Source of the DNA: a virus
Virus record (IMG/VR): IMGVR_UViG_3300021960_009431
DNA: 64,000 nt
Reading direction: 5' to 3' (one strand)
Translations under genes and position numbers: made by a program
Notes under the pieces: model-generated
Seen by the model: only the letters and a program-made list of their open reading frames with translations
Databases searched by the model: none
Told to the model about the DNA's origin: nothing
In this document: piece by piece, positions 1,271-63,868 of the stretch
Layout of the letters: the number at the start of each line of letters is the position of its first letter
Position numbering within the stretch: the stretch's first letter is position 1

Positions 1271-1306
1271 TATGGTAAAAATACCATACTTTTTATTTAT
1301 TTTTTA
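1269..1306 (+). terminator. Intrinsic terminator
   Basis: AGTATGGTA-aaaa-TACCATACT stem followed by a T-rich run. Confidence 0.6.
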
Positions 1307-1350
1307 GTTTCAGGGAAAAAATAAACCTATACTACTAAATAAAATTGTTA

Positions 1351-1608
1351 ACGTTGAAGCAACGTAGACGTATTCTGGACCTGGGGGCGGTACCCAGCAG
1401 CTCCACCAAGTGTACATTTAATGAGTGTATAGTTGATGGGGCTGAAATAGGATCGACAGGTGCGAAAGTGAAGTGGAGTTAACCGGATGACTGCGTTATT
1501 GGTCAACAACTACAAATGCAAACGATAATTTTGCACCATCTGGTTATGCACTAGCTGCATAGGCACAGGGGGAGGCCACTGCCTAGCAACAGAAGTGTGG
1601 CGTTCAAC
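1351..1608 (+). ncRNA. ssrA: Circularly permuted (two-piece) tmRNA, alphaproteobacterial type; tag (A)ANDNFAPSGYALAA
   Basis: Acceptor piece: T-arm CTGGG-GGCGGTA-CCCAG, then CAGCTCC-A-CCA ending at 1408. Intervening spacer 1409-1437. Coding piece begins GGGGCTGAAATAGGATCGAC at 1438 and pairs with CAGCTCC including a G3.U70 pair. Tag ORF 1518-1562 (GCA AAC GAT AAT TTT ... GCT GCA TAG). 3' TAGCAACAGAA motif. Outer ends approximate. Confidence 0.93.
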
Positions 1609-1625
1609 TATAAGAGGAGATCATT

Positions 1626-1859
1626 ATGGAAGTTCTAAACAAAGTAAAATCATGGGCAGGTGCTCTAGCTGAGGTTGGTCTTAGCGTAGCAGCTCTTGCA
1701 ATCATACTAGAAGTCCTAGGTATGGGTAACATGCCATTCATGCCAGAAGGTATGAGCGTAGTAGATAATGTTTCAGCTATGATATCAGGTCTAGGTTCAC
1801 AAGGTGTGATGGGTTTGATCGCTGTTTGGGTTCTATATGAAATCTGGAATCGTAAATAA
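1626..1859 (+). CDS. Small two-helix membrane protein
   Basis: GAGGAG RBS; two hydrophobic segments. Confidence 0.75.
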   Translation: MEVLNKVKSWAGALAEVGLSVAALAIILEVLGMGNMPFMPEGMSVVDNVSAMISGLGSQGVMGLIAVWVLYEIWNRK

Positions 1860-53677: not shown

Positions 53678-54241
53678 ATGGCTAAACGTAAAAGAAATGA
53701 ATATGTAAATAATAAAGATTTTTTAGCAGCATTAATTAAGTACCGTGATGATGTAAGGGAAGCAGAAGCTTCTAATAAATCTAGACCACGCGTCCCTAAT
53801 TATGTAGGTGAGTGTATAATGAAAATTGCAACTCATTTAGCACGCAAACCTAACTTTATAAATTATACATTTAAAGATGATATGATATCAGACGGTATTG
53901 AAAATTGTTTGCAGTACATCGATAATTTTAATCCAGATAAATCAAATAACCCGTTTGCTTATTTTACTCAAATTATATGGTTTGCATTTTTACGTAGAAT
54001 TCAGAAAGAGAAAAAATTATTATATGTAAAATATAAAATGACTGAAAACGTAAATATGATGGAGATGACGTCAGATCGACAAGGCCATGATATTGGTGGT
54101 AACTTTAATGATAGTATTAAAATGAGTGAATGGTCAACCGAGTATATGAGTAATTTTATAAATGACTTCGAAGAGACAAAGCGTCGCAAAGTCAATAAAC
54201 GTGAGCAGAAAAAAATAGATGAAAATAGCGCTAGTAACTGA
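53678..54241 (+). CDS. gp55: Late sigma factor gp55
   Basis: YVNNKDF, PNFINYTFKDDMISDGIENC, NPFAYFTQI...AFLRRI.KEKK motifs. Confidence 0.95.
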   Translation: MAKRKRNEYVNNKDFLAALIKYRDDVREAEASNKSRPRVPNYVGECIMKIATHLARKPNFINYTFKDDMISDGIENCLQYIDNFNPDKSNNPFAYFTQIIWFAFLRRIQKEKKLLYVKYKMTENVNMMEMTSDRQGHDIGGNFNDSIKMSEWSTEYMSNFINDFEETKRRKVNKREQKKIDENSASN

Positions 54242-55289: not shown

Positions 55290-57004
55290 TGATCTATTTT
55301 AAATATCTTCGTTGGAAGAATTTTCTTTCAACTGGAAATGTATTTACTGAATTAAAATTAGATAAAGCAAAATCTACTCTTGTAGTAGGTGAAAATGGTG
55401 CTGGTAAAAGTACTATGCTCGACGCTTTGTCCTTTGCTCTGTATGGTAAACCGTTTCGTAAAATTAATAAACCTCAACTTATGAATACTATTAACCAAAA
55501 AGGTTTAGAAGTGCAAGTTGAGTTTCGTGTTGGTAAAAAAGAATATATGATCGTACGAGGTGTCAAACCTAATAAGTTTGAGATTTATGAGAACGATAAA
55601 ATTATTAATCAAGATGCAGCAGCTAGAGATTATCAAGAAGTCTTAGAAAAAAATATTCTTAAACTTAATCATAAATCCTTTAGTCAGATTGTTGTACTAG
55701 GTAGTAGTACGTTTGTTCCTTTTATGCAACTTCCTTCAATGCATCGTAGAGAAGTTATTGAAGACTTACTTGATATTCAAATTTTCTCTACGATGAACAC
55801 TCTTTTAAAAGATAAAGTAAATAATAATAAATCTGAAATTCTTGATAACGACTATAATATTAATCTTGCTGAAGAAAAGATTAAAATGCAGCACCAGTAT
55901 ATTAATGAGTTAAAGCAAAACACTGAGAAGCGCGTTAATGAAGCTAAGGTAAAAGTAGTCAAAGCAGAAAAAGAAAAACAAGAATATAATACGTTAATAG
56001 ATACTCTTCAAGATCAAGTTAATATATTACAAGAAAGTATTTCTGATTTTGAAAGCTTAACTAAAAAGAAATCTAAGGTAGAGCAGCTAGAATATAAACT
56101 TCAAGAAAAAATTAAAAAGCTTGAACATGATATTGAGTTCTATCAAGATCATGATAACTGTCCTGTGTGTAAGCAAGACATCGAAGAAGACTTTAAAGAT
56201 CAGACGATTGAAGAAAAAGAAACTTCATTAAATGAGACTGTAAATGGTTTTAATCAGTTAAGAGAAGAATGGCAATCGATTAATAATCGTATACAAGAAA
56301 TCTCTGAAGTACAGTTAGATATTTCGTCTAAGCAGAATGAAATTAGCAGTAACAATTCTCACATCAATGCTTTAAATAAACTTATTGACAGTATTAATGA
56401 AGATATTACCAGTATTGATGATAGCGATAAATCAGATAAGTCAGATAAAAAGAAATTAGAGACATTAGAAAAAGCTTTAGTTAAACTACAATCTTATAAA
56501 GAAGAAATAATAAATGAGCGATCTGTTTTAGATATTGCATCGATGATTCTTAAAGATTCTGGTATTAAAACTCGTATTATTAAACAATATATTCCAGTAA
56601 TGAATAAACTTATTAATAAGTATCTTGCTGCAATGGATTTCTTTGTTGACTTTCAGCTTGATGAAAACTTTAATGAAACTATAAAGAGTAGGTTCCGAGA
56701 TGTATTTTCCTATGCTTCCTTCTCAGAAGGTGAAAAGATGCGTATTGATCTTGCGTTATTGTTTACTTGGAGAGCTGTATCAAAGTTACGTAACTCAGTA
56801 AGTACTAATCTTCTTATTATGGATGAAGTATTTGACTCATCTTTAGATAATACTGGTACAGAAGAGTTTTTAAAGATACTAAATGACTTGACTTCTGATA
56901 CAAATGTCTTTATAATAAGTCATAAAGGTGATCAACTCTATGATAAATTTCATAGTGTTATTCGTTTTGAGAAGCATAAAAACTTTAGTAGGGTTGCAGC
57001 ATGA
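55289..57004 (+). CDS. gp46: Recombination endonuclease subunit gp46 (Rad50-like)
   Basis: GENGAGKST, CPVC hook, FSEGEKMRID, DEVFDSSLD motifs. Confidence 0.95.
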   Translation: MIYFKYLRWKNFLSTGNVFTELKLDKAKSTLVVGENGAGKSTMLDALSFALYGKPFRKINKPQLMNTINQKGLEVQVEFRVGKKEYMIVRGVKPNKFEIYENDKIINQDAAARDYQEVLEKNILKLNHKSFSQIVVLGSSTFVPFMQLPSMHRREVIEDLLDIQIFSTMNTLLKDKVNNNKSEILDNDYNINLAEEKIKMQHQYINELKQNTEKRVNEAKVKVVKAEKEKQEYNTLIDTLQDQVNILQESISDFESLTKKKSKVEQLEYKLQEKIKKLEHDIEFYQDHDNCPVCKQDIEEDFKDQTIEEKETSLNETVNGFNQLREEWQSINNRIQEISEVQLDISSKQNEISSNNSHINALNKLIDSINEDITSIDDSDKSDKSDKKKLETLEKALVKLQSYKEEIINERSVLDIASMILKDSGIKTRIIKQYIPVMNKLINKYLAAMDFFVDFQLDENFNETIKSRFRDVFSYASFSEGEKMRIDLALLFTWRAVSKLRNSVSTNLLIMDEVFDSSLDNTGTEEFLKILNDLTSDTNVFIISHKGDQLYDKFHSVIRFEKHKNFSRVAA

Positions 57005-57537
57005 TAATGAATTTAGTGAAATCAAATGATCCAATATTAAAACAGAAATGTGAAATGTTTGATTTTGATAATCCACCGATGGATCCATTAAAATTAGCGC
57101 TTGACTTAAGAGAGAGTATGATATATCATAAGGGTATTGGTTTATCTGCTTGTCAGGTTGGTATACCATATAGAGTATTTGTTGCTGGTGATCCAGGTGA
57201 TATTGATAATATTAAAGTATTTTTTAATCCGAGAGTAGTTGATGCATCGGATCAAAAAGTTTTGATAGAGGAAGGATGCTTATCTTTCCCTGGTTTGTTT
57301 ATGAAGGTAAAACGTCCAGCCACAGTACGACTTCGATTTGCTGATCCTAGAGGTACAATAGCTACAGAGACATATGAAGGTGTACCAGCACGAGCTATTC
57401 TACATGAATATGATCATATGGATGGTATATTGTTTCATAATCGTGCTAATTCATATCATAGAGATCAAGCAAAAAAACAGAAAAAAAAGTTAGATAGGCT
57501 TCGCGAAGCTAATAAAAAGAAGCTAAGTAAAGTATAA
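57001..57537 (+). CDS. def: Peptide deformylase
   Basis: GIGLSACQVG, EGCLSFPG, HEYDH motifs. Confidence 0.93.
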   Translation: MIMNLVKSNDPILKQKCEMFDFDNPPMDPLKLALDLRESMIYHKGIGLSACQVGIPYRVFVAGDPGDIDNIKVFFNPRVVDASDQKVLIEEGCLSFPGLFMKVKRPATVRLRFADPRGTIATETYEGVPARAILHEYDHMDGILFHNRANSYHRDQAKKQKKKLDRLREANKKKLSKV

Positions 57538-57539
57538 TC

Positions 57540-57575
57540 AGTAGTGCCCTTCCACTGCTTAACTAAAACTAGGAG
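57540..57575 (+). promoter_or_regulatory. Riboswitch-like stem-loop/pseudoknot leader of queE
   Basis: AGTAGTG/CACTGCT stem; loop CCCTTC complementary to SD GGAG; A-rich linker TAACTAAAACTA. Confidence 0.4.
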
Positions 57576-57581
57576 TTCTAA

Positions 57582-58523
57582 ATGTCCCCGAAAGAATATA
57601 CGTATTCTGAGATCTTTCATTCTATTCAAGGTGAAGGTCATTATACCGGTGTTCCAACTGCATGGATAAGATTTTTCTTATGTAATTTACAGTGCGATGG
57701 ATTCGGTCAAGATCATCCAACTAAACCAGAAACCTGGGATCTACCATATAAAGATTTTGATTCTCACTCTGTAACAAGAGTAGAGGATTTACCGGTATGG
57801 TCAAAGGGTTGTGATTCTTCTTATACCTGGTCTAAAAAGTTTAGACATTTAATGGGTAAAGCTACAGGAGCTGAACTAGCTCAAAAGCTAGTCAATATTA
57901 TGAAGAATGAGCATAACCCTGAAGGTTGGTTCTTACACCCGTTATCTAAACAGCATAACCATTTATGTATTACAGGTGGTGAACCTCTAATGCGTCATGC
58001 TCAATTGGCGTTTATAGACATATATAAAACTTTAGAAGAAATGCCAGGTGGTCCATTACCTGATACTCATTTTTACTCTCCTAATAATTTACCTGCAAGT
58101 ATAACTTGGGAAACTAATGGTACTCAACCATTAACAGAAGATTTCAAAAATCTTGTAGATAGTCCTTTATTTAGACCTGAAGCTTTCTTTTCCGTATCTC
58201 CTAAACTCTGGACTGTAGCAGGAGAACAACGAAAGAAAGCAATTAAACCTGAAACTGTAAAAGAATATTATGATATTTCTAAAAACGGTCAGCTTAAATT
58301 TGTAGTAGGTCAAACTAAAGAAGAGTGGGAAGAGTTAGACGAAGTAGTTAATTTGTTTAGAGACGCAGGAGTTAAATATCCTGTATGGATCATGCCTGTA
58401 GGAGCAAGATCAGAAGAGCAAGAAGCCACTGCTGGTGATGTAGCTAAAATGGCATTCGAAAGAGGTTATAATGTCTCTGGAAGAATGCATGTTTATTTAT
58501 TTGGAAACGCAATAGGAACATAA
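57582..58523 (+). CDS. queE: 7-carboxy-7-deazaguanine synthase (radical SAM)
   Basis: SEIFHSIQGEG, CNLQC...GCDS, ITGGEP, ETNGT, SVSPKL motifs. Confidence 0.92.
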   Translation: MSPKEYTYSEIFHSIQGEGHYTGVPTAWIRFFLCNLQCDGFGQDHPTKPETWDLPYKDFDSHSVTRVEDLPVWSKGCDSSYTWSKKFRHLMGKATGAELAQKLVNIMKNEHNPEGWFLHPLSKQHNHLCITGGEPLMRHAQLAFIDIYKTLEEMPGGPLPDTHFYSPNNLPASITWETNGTQPLTEDFKNLVDSPLFRPEAFFSVSPKLWTVAGEQRKKAIKPETVKEYYDISKNGQLKFVVGQTKEEWEELDEVVNLFRDAGVKYPVWIMPVGARSEEQEATAGDVAKMAFERGYNVSGRMHVYLFGNAIGT

Positions 58524-58524
58524 C

Positions 58525-58968
58525 ATGGCATATTATAGTACAAAAACTTACGGACATAATATCGGGCTTTCTGCTGTCTTTAGACAACCTAAAGCTCATT
58601 CTCATTGTAAATTTTTACATGGGTATAGCTTAGCATTTAAGTTTACTTTTGGTGCTAGTAATTTAGACGAAAGAAACTGGGTAGTAGATTTTGGAGGTTT
58701 AAAAACTCTAAAAAAATGGCTAGAAGACAGCTTTGATCATAAACTAGTATTAGATAGAGATGATCCAATGATGTATAAGTTTGCTGAATTAGAAAATGCT
58801 GGTCTAGCTGAGATTACTGTTTTAGATGGTGTGGGTGTAGAAAGGTTTGCTGAGCATGCATGGAAGTTTGCAGACGATCTTGTAACAGAAGCTTCCGATG
58901 GTAGATGTTGGTGTGAGTCAGTAGAATGTTCAGAACATGGCGCTAATAGTGGAATATATAGGAGATAA
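58525..58968 (+). CDS. queD: 6-carboxytetrahydropterin synthase
   Basis: HCKFLHGY, WVVDFG, FDH motifs. Confidence 0.9.
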   Translation: MAYYSTKTYGHNIGLSAVFRQPKAHSHCKFLHGYSLAFKFTFGASNLDERNWVVDFGGLKTLKKWLEDSFDHKLVLDRDDPMMYKFAELENAGLAEITVLDGVGVERFAEHAWKFADDLVTEASDGRCWCESVECSEHGANSGIYRR

Positions 58969-58970
58969 AA

Positions 58971-59654
58971 ATGAAGCACAGCGAAGTTATTAAACAACGT
59001 ATTGAAGAAGCTGGTATTAGATATTGGGCTGGTGATAACATTAGTGATGTATTACAAGATGGTGATAAAGAATTAATTATTGAAGAAGCTACAAAAGCTT
59101 TCGAAAATGTGCTTGACTCTTTACTAATAGATCGTTATAATGATCCTAATAGTATGGATACAGGTAGACGGTTAGCTAAGATGTATGTAAATGAAGTCAT
59201 GAGCGGAAGATATAATATAATGCCTAAAGTATCAGCTTTTCCTAATGAAGGAGAAGATCGATATACAGGTATGCTAGTTATACGTTCTGAAGTAAAAAGT
59301 ATGTGTTCTCACCATCATCAACCAGTTACAGGGGTTGCTTATATTGGTGTTATACCTGGTCAAAAAGTAATAGGACTTTCTAAGTATACTCGTATTGCTC
59401 AATGGTGTGCACGTAGAGGTACATTGCAGGAAGAACTATGTAATGACATTGCTCGTGAGATCCGTAAAGCTACTGACAGTGAAGATGTAGCTGTTTATGT
59501 ACAAGCTACTCACGGGTGCTGTGAGAATAGAGGTATTATGGCTCATAGTTCTCTAACTCAAACTACTGTATTACATGGAGAATTTAATAACGGAGATGTT
59601 AAAAAAGAGTTTTTTGATAATATAAAATTACAGCAGGAGTTTGCTCCAAGATGA
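58971..59654 (+). CDS. folE: GTP cyclohydrolase I
   Basis: SMCSHH, GLSKY.R, LQEE, HGC...RG motifs. Confidence 0.95.
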   Translation: MKHSEVIKQRIEEAGIRYWAGDNISDVLQDGDKELIIEEATKAFENVLDSLLIDRYNDPNSMDTGRRLAKMYVNEVMSGRYNIMPKVSAFPNEGEDRYTGMLVIRSEVKSMCSHHHQPVTGVAYIGVIPGQKVIGLSKYTRIAQWCARRGTLQEELCNDIAREIRKATDSEDVAVYVQATHGCCENRGIMAHSSLTQTTVLHGEFNNGDVKKEFFDNIKLQQEFAPR

Positions 59655-59812
59655 ATCATATGAATGTATCTTTTGTAAAAAGTGGTATACGAATAGGAGC
59701 TTGTATTTTAGGAATAACACTTCAAAGTATAACAGCGTTATGTTTTTTCTTGCTATTTGCCGAAATATTAGGTATAATAGAAGAAGTTGTAGATAAACGT
59801 GAGGAGAAATAA
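59651..59812 (+). CDS. 53-aa membrane protein (not in ORF track)
   Basis: MNHMNVSFVKSGIRIGACILGITLQSITALCFFLLFAEILGIIEEVVDKREEK*; coupled by ATGA and TAATG overlaps on both sides. Confidence 0.75.
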   Translation: MNHMNVSFVKSGIRIGACILGITLQSITALCFFLLFAEILGIIEEVVDKREEK

Positions 59813-60594
59813 TGAAAATAGCGCATGAAGCTCCATTAAGTATCTTTGATCAAGTACAGGAGTTAACTGATTATGATTATGCTCTTGTACATCTATTTGA
59901 AGAGAATGATGATTATTTTAATAAATTTATAGAAGCAAGAGATAAAGGTAGAGAGATCATTCTTGATAATTCTATCTTTGAACTCGGTACAGCATGGGAT
60001 AGTGATAGATTTGCTTACTGGGTAGAGAAACTAAAACCTGATTGGTATATTGTACCTGATGTATTAGATAATAAAGACGCTACAATTGATAGCTTTGATG
60101 CGTTCATAGAAAAGTATCCTAACTTACCTGGAAAACGTATTGCTGTCGCTCAAGGTACTACTTATGAAGAGTTAGTTGATTGCTACGAATATCTTGCATA
60201 TCATAATAAAGTAGATAAGATTGGTTTATCATTTAACCATCCGTTTTTTCAAGAATTAAATTTGCATAACAAATACTTTAATATGATGTTTGGAAGACAG
60301 ATGACTCTAACATCAATGCTAGAAGATAAAATTATTAATAAAGATAAACCGCATCATCTATTAGGATGTGGTCTACCTCAGGAGTTTAGAGACTATGTAG
60401 ACTATAAATGGATTGATTCTATTGATACATCTAATCCTGTTATGCACGGTATTAAAAATGTACGTTACTTAGAGCATGGTTTAGAAGATAAAGAATCAGT
60501 AAAAATGTTTACTATAATGGACGATAATGTTCTTGCATCTTGGGACGATATAGCTTATAATATAGAGAAGTTTAGAGGTTTCTGTAGTGGATAG
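59812..60594 (+). CDS. Divergent TGT-fold 7-deazaguanine transglycosylase (DpdA3-like)
   Basis: ILDNSIFELG, PDVL, VAQG, HLLG and SIDTS align with TGT/DpdA DSG-F, PD, VQG, HxxG and D-S motifs; embedded in the que cluster. Confidence 0.65.
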   Translation: MKIAHEAPLSIFDQVQELTDYDYALVHLFEENDDYFNKFIEARDKGREIILDNSIFELGTAWDSDRFAYWVEKLKPDWYIVPDVLDNKDATIDSFDAFIEKYPNLPGKRIAVAQGTTYEELVDCYEYLAYHNKVDKIGLSFNHPFFQELNLHNKYFNMMFGRQMTLTSMLEDKIINKDKPHHLLGCGLPQEFRDYVDYKWIDSIDTSNPVMHGIKNVRYLEHGLEDKESVKMFTIMDDNVLASWDDIAYNIEKFRGFCSG

Positions 60595-61117
60595 ATGGAT
60601 TGCTTTATTTTCTCAAACTGGTTCTGAAATAGTAGATATAGCAAATCAGCTGGGAGTTTGGCCAGATCGTATTTTTACTGATAATAAAAATATAGAAGAT
60701 ATAAACGTTAAGCTTAAAAATAAAATAGTGGTAATGTCTCATAATGGTATAGAAGAGACACTACAATATACAAGTGATATGACAGGTAATACTTTAGTTA
60801 CTCTTCATGGTTATCTACGTATATTAAGTCCTAAAACATGTAATGTAGGTCTATCAATTTATAACGGTCATCCAGCTTATATCTCTAAACATCCAGAACT
60901 TAAAGGAAAAGATCCTCAAGAGATGATTTGGAGTGATAGAGATAATTATGATTTTATTGGCTCTACGGTTCATAGAGTGATTGCTGACGTAGATGCTGGA
61001 GCTATTGAAGAAGAAAGTATAAGGAAAAATACTTGCAATTCTAAAGAAGAGCTGTATAATACATTAAGAAAAACATCTTTAGATGCTTGGATTAATTTTT
61101 TAAAGGATAAATTATGA
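60587..61117 (+). CDS. PurN-like formyltransferase (putative preQ1 formyltransferase, DpdN-like)
   Basis: ALFSQTGS, LHGYLRIL, NGHPA, GSTVH.V...VDAG formyl-THF transferase motifs. Confidence 0.8.
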   Translation: MDRWIALFSQTGSEIVDIANQLGVWPDRIFTDNKNIEDINVKLKNKIVVMSHNGIEETLQYTSDMTGNTLVTLHGYLRILSPKTCNVGLSIYNGHPAYISKHPELKGKDPQEMIWSDRDNYDFIGSTVHRVIADVDAGAIEEESIRKNTCNSKEELYNTLRKTSLDAWINFLKDKL

Positions 61118-61449
61118 GTAAAAAAGATAAAAGCTTTTTTGAAACGTTGACTGTGTCTGTAGATAATACTGATGTTGAACCTACAATTACTTTAGGTGAA
61201 ATTGATGAAGATGGTGAGCCTCGTCCTAATCATTATAGTCAAGATCCTAATTCTATAGAATGTATTGAAGTTATTAAGCAGTTGTGTAAGGAACATCAGA
61301 ACGATCCTTTTACTGACTATAATAGATATCAAGCGTTCAAATATCTTTGGCGTATGGGTAAGAAAGATGATGTATTGTTTGATTTAAATAAAGCTATTAC
61401 ATTTTTGGAGTTTGCAAGGAAAGCATTAGAGGATGAACGTAATGGATGA
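61114..61449 (+). CDS. DUF3310 / T7 gp1.7-like nucleotide kinase domain protein
   Basis: PNHY...IECIEVI...KYLWR.GKK...DLNKA..FL motif. Confidence 0.8.
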   Translation: MSKKDKSFFETLTVSVDNTDVEPTITLGEIDEDGEPRPNHYSQDPNSIECIEVIKQLCKEHQNDPFTDYNRYQAFKYLWRMGKKDDVLFDLNKAITFLEFARKALEDERNG

Positions 61450-62374
61450 AATTGAAAAAATTGCTAGTAAGGTATTAGGTAAAACGTCTGACGGATCTAC
61501 TATGATGCGTTATGAAACACCAGATGATATAGATGCTTCTTTACTCGTAGGCGTACCTAGACATCTCAATCGCACTGGTTACGGTATTAGTAATGACGGT
61601 TCAGAGTTATTTCATGGTATTGATGCTTGGAACGGTTATGAGTTTAGTTGTTTATTAGATAATGGATTTCCTGTTTCAGGTCTTCTTAAATGGAACTACC
61701 CTTCAGATTCAGAATGTATTGTTGAATCTAAATCTGCTAAGTTATATCTCAACTCTTTTAATATGGTTAAGATGGGGAAAACAGTTGAAGAAGCTATAGC
61801 TAATGTAGAACAGAAAATTGATGAAGATATGGCACCTGTACTTGGTATTAGTGATGAATGGGACTTAAATGTATGTCTACATATGAATGAGGATCATACA
61901 TCACGTCCTATTTCAGGAACATTTATTCCACTTGAAGAAATTGTAGATGTAGCATCTATTGAATTTGATCATTATAATGAAGATCCAGAAATTATTAAAT
62001 TAGAAGTAAATGAAGATTATAGAGATATTAAATATCAATCTAAATCTCTTCGCTCTAATTGTCGAGTAACTAACCAGCCTGACTGGGGTGATATCTTTAT
62101 TCATATAAAAGGTGATCGTATTCCTACACCTGAATCTTTATTGCAATATATTGTAAGTATGCGTAAAGAAAATCATTTCCATGAGGAAATATGTGAGTGT
62201 GTTTATAAACGTTTACATGATCTTTGTGGTCCAGAAGAATTAGTGGTTGCATGTCTATATACACGTCGTGGTGGTATTGATATTAATCCAGTAAGAGCAA
62301 GTAGTCCTCAATTACTTACTCAACATCCGATCACCGACGCATTTAATATGTGTGATAAAACTATGCGTCAGTAA
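61433..62374 (+). CDS. queF: NADPH-dependent preQ0 reductase QueF, bimodular type (start may be 61442)
   Basis: IVESKS.KLYLNSF, LRSNCRVTNQPDWG, FHEE, YTRRGGIDINP.R motifs. Confidence 0.93.
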   Translation: MNVMDEIEKIASKVLGKTSDGSTMMRYETPDDIDASLLVGVPRHLNRTGYGISNDGSELFHGIDAWNGYEFSCLLDNGFPVSGLLKWNYPSDSECIVESKSAKLYLNSFNMVKMGKTVEEAIANVEQKIDEDMAPVLGISDEWDLNVCLHMNEDHTSRPISGTFIPLEEIVDVASIEFDHYNEDPEIIKLEVNEDYRDIKYQSKSLRSNCRVTNQPDWGDIFIHIKGDRIPTPESLLQYIVSMRKENHFHEEICECVYKRLHDLCGPEELVVACLYTRRGGIDINPVRASSPQLLTQHPITDAFNMCDKTMRQ

Positions 62375-62419
62375 GTGGTTCATGAAAGCTAACCACTTTA
62401 AAAAACATACCGCTTTCAT
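62373..62419 (+). promoter_or_regulatory. preQ1-I-like riboswitch / H-type pseudoknot upstream of queC
   Basis: AGTGG-TTCATGAAAGCTAA-CCACT-TTAAAAAACAT; loop ATGAAAGC pairs with GCTTTCAT next to the GGAG RBS. Confidence 0.55.
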
Positions 62420-62432
62420 ATTGGAGAACTAA

Positions 62433-63248
62433 ATGAAAAATATCGTTGTATCATTATCTGGAGGAATGGACTCCTCTACTCTACTGTTGCGCGCTATCAA
62501 AGAGGTAGGTGCAAGTAATGTAACAGCTTTGTCATTTGATTATGGACAGAAGCACGTTTGTGAATTAGAACGTGCTAAAGAAATAGTAAACTATCTTGCA
62601 GTACATGGGCATACAATCAGGTATCAAGTTATTAAACTTGATGGTATTACTGAGTTGTTATCTTCAGCCCTTGTATCTGGAGGTGCAGATGTGCCTGAAG
62701 GTCATTATGCAGAAGATAATATGAAGCAGACGGTTGTACCTAATCGTAATAAAATCTTTGCTTCATTAGTTCAAGCTGTTGCTTTATCTGTAGTAAAAAA
62801 TACTGAACAAGAAACAGCTATTGCATTAGGTATTCATGCCGGTGATCATGCAATTTACCCTGATTGTCGTCAAGAGTTTCGTGATGCAGATGATGAAGCA
62901 TTTCGAATTGGTAACTGGGATGCTGATAAAGTAACTTATTTTACTCCTTATCTTGAAGGTGATAAGTTCGATATTCTAAAAGACGGTGAAGTACTTTGCG
63001 AGCAGCTAGGTTTAGACTTTGATGAAGTTTATTCTCGTACAAACACCTCATACAAACCTTTACAGATTGATGGAGTGTGGTTCTCTGATTATAAGAGTTC
63101 TTCTTCTGTCGAACGTCTGGAAGCGTTTATTAAACTAGGACGTCCTGATCCTGTCGCATATGCTGACGAAACAGGTCCTGTTCCTTATGAGATAGCTAGA
63201 GCACATGCTCAGCTAGTACTCAAGGAATATCAAAGTAACGCAGCATGA
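62433..63248 (+). CDS. queC: 7-cyano-7-deazaguanine synthase
   Basis: SLSGGMDS PP-loop, FDYGQKH, VPNRN, YPDCR motifs. Confidence 0.93.
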   Translation: MKNIVVSLSGGMDSSTLLLRAIKEVGASNVTALSFDYGQKHVCELERAKEIVNYLAVHGHTIRYQVIKLDGITELLSSALVSGGADVPEGHYAEDNMKQTVVPNRNKIFASLVQAVALSVVKNTEQETAIALGIHAGDHAIYPDCRQEFRDADDEAFRIGNWDADKVTYFTPYLEGDKFDILKDGEVLCEQLGLDFDEVYSRTNTSYKPLQIDGVWFSDYKSSSSVERLEAFIKLGRPDPVAYADETGPVPYEIARAHAQLVLKEYQSNAA

Positions 63249-63259
63249 AAGGATAATAA

Positions 63260-63868
63260 ATGCTGAAACAAATGTTTAATCTCGAAGCAGTAGATCGATC
63301 TCTATTGTGGAAACTGGTACTTACACATCTAGTAATCATTGCTGCTTCAAACTATATTGTTCAATTTAGTGGTATGATTTTTGGTTACCACTTTACATGG
63401 GCAATGTTTATCTTCCCACTTGTAGTGATTGCTACTGACTTAACTATCCGATTAACTAATAAGTATCAAGCTCGAATGGTAGTAGCTATTGCTTTTATTC
63501 CAGCTATTTTTATTAGCTCTTATATTGCTACTCCAATGATTGGATTAGCTAGTGCTCTTGCATATCTAGTAGGTCAGTTATTTGATGTATCTGTCTTTCA
63601 GAAAATTAGAGAAGCATTTACAGAACGTTGGTGGGTAGCACCTGCAGTATCAACGTTTGTTGCTAATATTGTTGATACCTATCTATTCTTCTGGGCAGCA
63701 TTCGCATATGGCAATGATGAGTTTATGGCAGCTAATTGGTTAGAAATTGCTACTGTAGATGTAATCTTTAAAATTATCGTATCATTTGTAATGTTCTTAC
63801 CTATATACGGTGTACTACTTCGATATCTACGTACACGTATGGAAGTAGGTACAGGTGGAACTTATTAA
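63260..63868 (+). CDS. yhhQ: preQ0/preQ1 transporter (VUT/YhhQ family)
   Basis: IIAASNYIVQ, TWAMFIFP...ATDLT.R, ASALAYL.GQ.FDV.VF, DTY.FF motifs; multiple TM helices. Confidence 0.9.
   Translation: MLKQMFNLEAVDRSLLWKLVLTHLVIIAASNYIVQFSGMIFGYHFTWAMFIFPLVVIATDLTIRLTNKYQARMVVAIAFIPAIFISSYIATPMIGLASALAYLVGQLFDVSVFQKIREAFTERWWVAPAVSTFVANIVDTYLFFWAAFAYGNDEFMAANWLEIATVDVIFKIIVSFVMFLPIYGVLLRYLRTRMEVGTGGTY

Follow-up and report, generated by a model that had tools for sequence, protein, structure and literature searches.

A conserved H-type pseudoknot lies in the leader of queC in an uncultured T4-like marine myophage, where it takes up about 46 nt (62374-62419, + strand) of the window, by which we mean the whole 64,000-nt stretch of phage DNA analysed here. 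It is a real, selected RNA structure and an uncatalogued control RNA: it shares both fold plan and gene context with the class I preQ1 riboswitch (preQ1-I, Rfam RF00522), yet it fails the tests of membership in that family. As the best explanation, which we hold tentatively, this preQ1-I-like pseudoknot would exert cis-acting translational control over queC (and yhhQ), most likely by being stabilized by a metabolite.

The phage encodes terminase, portal, sheath, baseplate and major head proteins, the last of these sharing 65% identity with its counterparts in Pelagibacter phage Mosig and Methylophilales phage Melnitz. Its 7-deazaguanine DNA-modification genes form a tightly packed operon (Table 1) in the order queE, queD, folE, a small ORF, the gene for a 260-aa protein, a PurN-like formyltransferase gene, a DUF3310 gene, queF, queC and yhhQ. 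The junctions in this operon overlap or are at most 11 nt long, with the sole exception of the 58-nt spacer between queF and queC, which holds the element; the queF stop codon (UAA, 62372-62374) overlaps the first base of P1. The yhhQ gene starts 11 nt after queC, and is probably co-expressed with it.

Several other features of this phage deserve mention. The 260-aa protein has no family match and a faint similarity to the DNA-guanine transglycosylase 7ui4 (E 0.37), and it may be a divergent DpdA. The 7-deazaguanine module is complete and includes QueF and a PurN-like formyltransferase, which is the gene set tied to formyl-dPreQ1 DNA in Flavobacterium phage immuto (PMC10516641). Between the peptide deformylase gene and queE is a 6-bp G/C-rich hairpin (CAGUAGUGCCCUUCCACUG), which is preceded by GTATAAT and lies 25 nt before the queE start. 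The phage also encodes a protein with a weak likeness to sigma-70 region 2, and a permuted tmRNA of the two-piece, alphaproteobacterial type (Rfam alpha_tmRNA, 117.9 bits; tmRNA_permuted, 123.5 bits), whose tag according to ARAGORN is ANDNFAPSGYALAA and for which there was no DNA match among 50,697 cultured-phage records. This permuted tmRNA hints at an alphaproteobacterial host; related pelagimyophages and methylophages are also reported to carry tmRNA genes.

Table 1. Positions in the window of the parts of the queC-leader element and of the other features discussed in the text.
Feature	Position	Strand	Remarks
Permuted tmRNA	1301-1653	+	
Weak sigma-70 region-2-like protein	53678-54241	+	
Peptide deformylase gene	57001-57537	+	Pfam 6.3e-37
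G/C-rich hairpin	57539-57557	+	
7-Deazaguanine DNA-modification operon	57582-63868	+	
260-aa protein	59812-60594	+	
PurN-like formyltransferase	60587-61117	+	Part of 7-deazaguanine module
queF (NADPH-dependent preQ0 reductase)	61433-62374	+	Pfam QueF_N and QueF; NCBIfam TIGR03138
P1 5' strand, AGUGG	62374-62378	+	Pairs with 62393-62397
L1, UUCAU	62379-62383	+	Leading UU in 43 of 44 sequences; AU in L061
P2 5' strand core, GAAAGC	62384-62389	+	Extends to 62382-62389, AUGAAAGC, in this phage
L2, UAA	62390-62392	+	Last A at the position of the preQ1-I specificity cytosine
P1 3' strand, CCACU	62393-62397	+	Pairs with 62374-62378
L3, UUAAAAAACAUACC	62398-62411	+	Conserved 5' NUAAA and 3' AYAC(N), variable middle
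P2 3' strand core, GCUUUC	62412-62417	+	Extends to 62419 in this phage
queC Shine-Dalgarno (SD), GGAG	62423-62426	+	3 nt past extended P2, outside P2
queC (7-cyano-7-deazaguanine synthase)	62433-63248	+	AUG at 62433; Pfam QueC 2.1e-36
yhhQ-type preQ0/preQ1 transporter	63260-63868	+	Pfam Vut_1/YhhQ; NCBIfam PRK11212 / TIGR00697

From 5' to 3' the element runs P1 (5 bp), L1 (UUYAU), P2a, L2 (UAA), P1b, L3 (14-15 nt, NUAAA...AYAC-N) and P2b, with a P2 of 6-8 bp, and its consensus reads AGUGG / UUYAU / six A-rich positions ending in C / UAA / CCACU / N-U-A-A-A...A-Y-A-C-N / G(N)5. The hairpin loop (62379-62392) ends in UAA, and UUAAAAAACAU occupies 62398-62408. An earlier note on this DNA had read the site as a look-alike of a preQ1-I riboswitch with an altered specificity base; the strings that it quoted are all present in the queF-queC spacer where it had placed them, and AUGAAAGC in the loop is perfectly complementary to GCUUUCAU (62412-62419), the 8-bp partner to which it had drawn attention.

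We gathered relatives by QueC searches in IMG/VR and by motif scans of viral, metagenome and genome collections, and obtained the element in 43 distinct versions from viral and metagenome contigs, plus one doubtful look-alike. Across the 43 aligned relatives (MAFFT alignment A1), P1 was 99.1% paired. The long helix from the loop to the 3' segment (GAAAGC/GCUUUC) was 89.9% paired on A1 and about 99% paired in the correct register; what mispairing is left on A1 comes from seven sequences that have an extra base in L3, a loop of 14 nt in 35 sequences and of 15 nt in eight. In a structure-aware register, all six P2 pairs form in 42 of 44 sequences, and do so through 17 distinct P2 sequence combinations (e.g. 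GAAUGC/GCAUUC, UAGAAC/GUUCUA, AAGUCC/GGACUU, AAACUC/GAGUUU, GAUAAC/GUUAUC and AAGCUC/GAGCUU). Slid registers drop to 35-55% paired, and when a P2a was set against the 3' region from a sequence with a different P2a, six of six pairs formed in only 10.6% of cases. The covariation check in related phage queC leaders that the earlier note had suggested finds the structure kept, with changes on both sides in seven of the 11 pairs and a level of covariation that none of 500 shuffles reached. Its central claim of a conserved, phage-borne structured RNA of preQ1-I-like layout in the queC leader is thus upheld by these relatives, in which P1 and the long helix both covary. Since G-U pairs are seen only in the + sense, the functional molecule is the + strand RNA.

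Conservation is not confined to the helices. The terminal C-G pair of P2 is invariant, P1 pair 3 is UA in 40 sequences and AU in four, and pair 5 is GC in 38, GU in five and AU in one. Alignment A1 has 14 invariant columns, clustered in L1, L2, L3 and at helix ends and junctions, and the near-invariant positions are the UU of L1, the terminal C-G of P2, the UAA of L2 (43 of 44 sequences, with UAU in one) and the start and end of L3, where a conserved AYAC precedes a variable base (C, U, GU or GC) 5' of P2b. Across the same loci, QueC identity falls as low as 67%. The UU of L1 can pair with the AA of L2, giving a P1 of 7 bp, and in L061 both sides are changed, to AU/AU; a scan with the L1 and L2 positions left open found L061 alone, so that this extension of P1 rests on one compensatory case.

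Some relatives form a sub-class (L035:2938-2980, L040:2942-2983, L044:1966-2008, L168:2926-2969 and L497) in which P1b opens with U in place of C, making a G-U pair (A-U in L168), and L3 also differs (..AAUCNNAAUACY); in most of their contigs neither queF nor the formyltransferase is nearby. This sub-class could be a lineage only, or a functional variant. In the queF-less contigs of the window's class (class A), whose records are only 4-6% complete, queF was not found, an absence that is no firm guide to the ligand. The doubtful look-alike (L407:566-612, metagenome contig ODAI010661058.1), a weak match to the class-A model (43 bits), lies before a Lys/Ala-rich small ORF and not before queC; it is probably unrelated, and was excluded.

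The genomic position of the element is fixed with respect to queC and to no other gene. By tblastn it lies directly 5' of queC in every locus that holds downstream sequence, and is preceded by queF in most loci or else by a DUF3310 gene, a denV-like glycosylase gene or a kinase gene; the gene after queC is yhhQ or a dCTP-deaminase-like gene. Among 185,579 species genomes the search pattern matched 77 times, and the one true match was on a 1.9-kb contig with queF and queC that had been binned into a MAG; within reach of that pattern, the element is phage-borne. In 34 of 43 loci the stop codon of the upstream gene reaches into the beginning of P1, 0-2 nt from its start; in three it lies 4 nt before P1, and in five it is inside the knot. 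Ribosomes that terminate there must therefore unfold the structure.

A second pseudoknot, of the same plan and different sequence, lies directly before queC in Flavobacterium phage immuto and many of its relatives (class B). In immuto it reads AACGU-UU-GCC-UAU-ACGUU-UAAAAUACCU-GGC, and at E <= 1 it escapes the covariance model built for the window's class. Class B shows covariation of its own in P1 and P2 (e.g. AGGAU/AUCCU, and GCCCC/GGGGU in L077). The DNA of immuto carries formyl-dPreQ1 in place of G, with the PurN-like formyltransferase DpdN as the predicted maker (PMC10516641). Among homologous leaders in cultured phages, that of immuto is this class B knot, and that of Vibrio phage 2.275.O was rejected, as it holds unrelated hairpins and no PreQ1 match.

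At Rfam gathering thresholds, the tmRNA was the sole match in the window, and RF00522 was not found. In a permissive scan (Rfam 15, including preQ1-II, preQ1-III, SAM-II and SAM-V; E <= 10) of the 201 nt at 62300-62500, RF00522 was the best match and aligned end to end at 21.4 bits (E = 0.02), 18 bits below its gathering cut-off of 39 bits; none of the other families did better than E about 1, and these other matches were to unrelated sRNA or snoRNA models. The preQ1-I likeness claimed in the earlier note is therefore measurable, and the Infernal-type PreQ1 check that it had called for does return this family first, but at a score short of membership. The relatives behave similarly. RF00522 is the best Rfam match of L047 (20.3 bits) and only relatives with an AAAAAAC tract reach about 20 bits, while the class-A elements of L019, L012 and L035 have no match and most relatives score nothing. 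Of 50 further phage records with queC, eight being at least 90% complete, none had a PreQ1 match over the cut-off, and the B. subtilis control passed; a sub-threshold match in the record of L099 falls inside an ORF and was set aside as noise.

At the position of the specificity cytosine the family has A in 43 of 44 sequences, U in one and C in none, so the altered base reported earlier is confirmed and is fixed in the family. In principle, the element could be a true preQ1-I aptamer with a short P2 (AUG/CAU), its C-to-A change retuning it to another deazapurine and the long pairing being a competing fold. Both pairings exist in this phage, where RF00522 aligns along its whole length (21.4 bits). 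However, the short P2, which the earlier note had taken to covary, is only 60% paired in the relatives: its A-U pair holds in 14 and fails in 21 of 35 informative sequences, and a double change occurs in one of its three pairs. Most relatives, as noted, have no RF00522 match at all. We consider this reading very improbable, the least likely of those discussed here, and of the two alternative pseudoknots once suggested only the long pairing covaries. More generally, a plain preQ1-I that has exchanged its specificity base is disfavoured by several features: P2 is 6-8 bp long, the SD is outside it, no conserved A adjoins P2b, and L1 U and L2 A can pair. A displaced specificity cytosine, C22, with a 4-bp P1 is likewise disfavoured, as C22 varies as a pair with G7 (GC 38, GU 5 and AU 1, the last in L168).

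How might such an element act on queC? Across leaders P2 is separated from the GGAG by 3-13 nt, and the AUG of the relatives follows 13-23 nt after the end of the P2b core. We found no excess of promoter or terminator signals, so transcriptional control is unsupported and was rejected. For the translational control that we favour, we infer the following sequence of events, including ligand binding, the kind of ligand and the direction of control. A preQ1-I ancestor would have lost its ligand-reading cytosine and its short, SD-containing P2, and taken a long new P2. When an intermediate of the 7-deazaguanine pathway accumulates, it would stabilize the pseudoknot, which, ending just 5' of the ribosome-binding site, would lower 30S loading, so that translation of queC and of the downstream yhhQ would be controlled in cis. 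Given that the SD is 3-13 nt outside P2, a mechanism of occlusion is not evident. The opposite sign of control, a translational ON switch in which P2b is an anti-RBS or anti-start strand captured by P2a as the knot forms, appears improbable. In the commonest sub-family, sequestering P2b does raise the predicted accessibility of the RBS from about 0.33 to 0.61, but P2b forms no more stable a hairpin with the RBS than a shuffled P2b does (mean z +0.24, 29 distinct leaders), and the sequence around the start codon does not change in step with P2b.

Whether the favoured translational control would involve a ligand is finely balanced. On the one hand, a ligand is favoured by a riboswitch-like pattern of conservation, by genes that are classic targets of such regulation, by the probable descent from preQ1-I and by the sister motif in phages whose hosts do not use an SD. 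On the other hand, it is disfavoured by the missing cytosine, by a P2 that is long and probably stable by itself, and by the pairing of L1 UU with L2 AA, which would fill the canonical pocket. The knot may therefore be stable when free of ligand, and the canonical pocket may be closed. We thus regard a new 7-deazaguanine-sensing riboswitch as possible but somewhat doubtful, and a constitutive or protein-bound element as about as likely. The fuller proposal, that a phage-specific riboswitch class built from the preQ1-I fold would, though lacking the canonical cytosine, sense preQ0, CDG or a preQ1 derivative and provide metabolite feedback on the base that replaces G, is one in which we place less confidence still.

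Without a ligand, the element could, first, be a derivative of preQ1-I in which U-A pairing has shut the pocket and the long P2 keeps the fold constitutive. Such an element would set translation of queC-yhhQ relative to queF, uncouple the cistrons or stabilize the downstream mRNA. The length of P2, the extension of P1 to 7 bp (with AU/AU on both sides in L061) and the upstream stop codons that in 42 of 43 loci oblige terminating ribosomes to melt the knot are all consistent with this, and we found no alternative pairing that could serve as an expression platform. Nonetheless, a spacer or stabilizer does not usually need as many as 14 unpaired or junction positions kept invariant over deep divergence, the immuto-type motif cannot form the U-A extension (its L1 U is opposite an L2 U), and an element tied so strictly to queC alone suggests control specific to the pathway. 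We judge this alternative unlikely, although it is the strongest of those weighed against the metabolite-stabilized knot.

A protein could also take the place of the ligand. The pseudoknot in the leader of T4 gene 32 is an autoregulatory operator, at which the single-strand-binding protein gp32 nucleates, and in a similar way a phage protein (e.g. QueC, QueF or a DpdA-like transglycosylase) or a host protein might repress queC from a translational operator. Conserved loops and junctions between covarying stems would suit a protein site as well as a ligand pocket, and the knot stands immediately 5' of an A/U-rich ribosome site. Against this, the loci examined show no candidate RNA-binding protein co-varying with the element, whose sole constant neighbour is queC, and a host protein is hard to reconcile with the same plan in phages of SD-using and of Bacteroidota hosts. 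We rate a protein-bound operator as rather less probable again than the constitutive fold, and retain stabilization by a metabolite as our working explanation.

In phages whose DNA has 7-deazaguanines in place of guanine, the flux required through FolE-QueD-QueE-QueC is very large. In the literature searched, we found nothing on how that flux is controlled in G-replacing phages, and no riboswitch or leader pseudoknot described in phage 7-deazaguanine modules; the Dp-1 genome paper, which was outside this search (Sabri and colleagues, 2011), reportedly discussed preQ1 riboswitches. Cui and colleagues, in their 2023 work on fdPreQ1 and DpdN, do not mention riboswitches (PMC10516641). A conserved RNA tied to queC across phage lineages is a small and concrete object for experimental tests. 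If it binds a ligand, it would show how nature can rebuild the smallest known riboswitch fold with the specificity base gone; otherwise, a riboswitch would have been turned into a constitutive or protein-bound element. Either outcome would inform both riboswitch evolution and the annotation of phage DNA-modification modules.

Among known systems, the T4 gene 32 leader resembles the queC element in being a phage H-type pseudoknot 5' of an unstructured, A/U-rich ribosome site, and differs in its link to a single-strand-binding protein, which is not evident here. The immuto-type knot shares with the window's class a 5-bp P1, a P2a ending in C, an L2 of UAU or UAA, an L3 ending in AAUACC(U) and a P2b starting with G, but its P2 is only 3-5 bp (GCC/GGC), its L3 about 10 nt and its P1 of another sequence, and its leader has no SD, as expected for Bacteroidota hosts.

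In preQ1-I itself, all three types strictly conserve the preQ1-reading cytosine (PMC11625349), along with the G-C pair of the floor, a U within L1 and an A within L3 (PMC11625349, PMC10622847). Of these features only the L1 U is clearly retained here: the cytosine is absent, the floor pair varies (GC 38, GU 5, AU 1), and the base just before P2b varies, after a conserved AYAC. The P2 of preQ1-I is 3-4 bp long, compared with 6-8 bp here, made with a segment 14-15 nt downstream; translational preQ1-I riboswitches hold the SD within P2, whereas the GGAG here is outside it, and transcriptional ones have a terminator, which is not present. Yet, like the leaders of B. subtilis queC, T. tengcongensis and E. 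coli yhhQ, the element is an H-type pseudoknot with a 5-bp, G/C-rich P1, which in L047 and L055 is AGAGG/CCUCU, the very P1 quoted for B. subtilis in the earlier note. In both, UU(C) directly follows P1a and an A-rich tail follows P1b, and both occupy the leader of queC and yhhQ, the classic genes under preQ1-I control (PMC10622847). Because its plan, its P1, L1 and L3 sequences and its gene context are those of the class I preQ1 riboswitch, the element probably descends from it.
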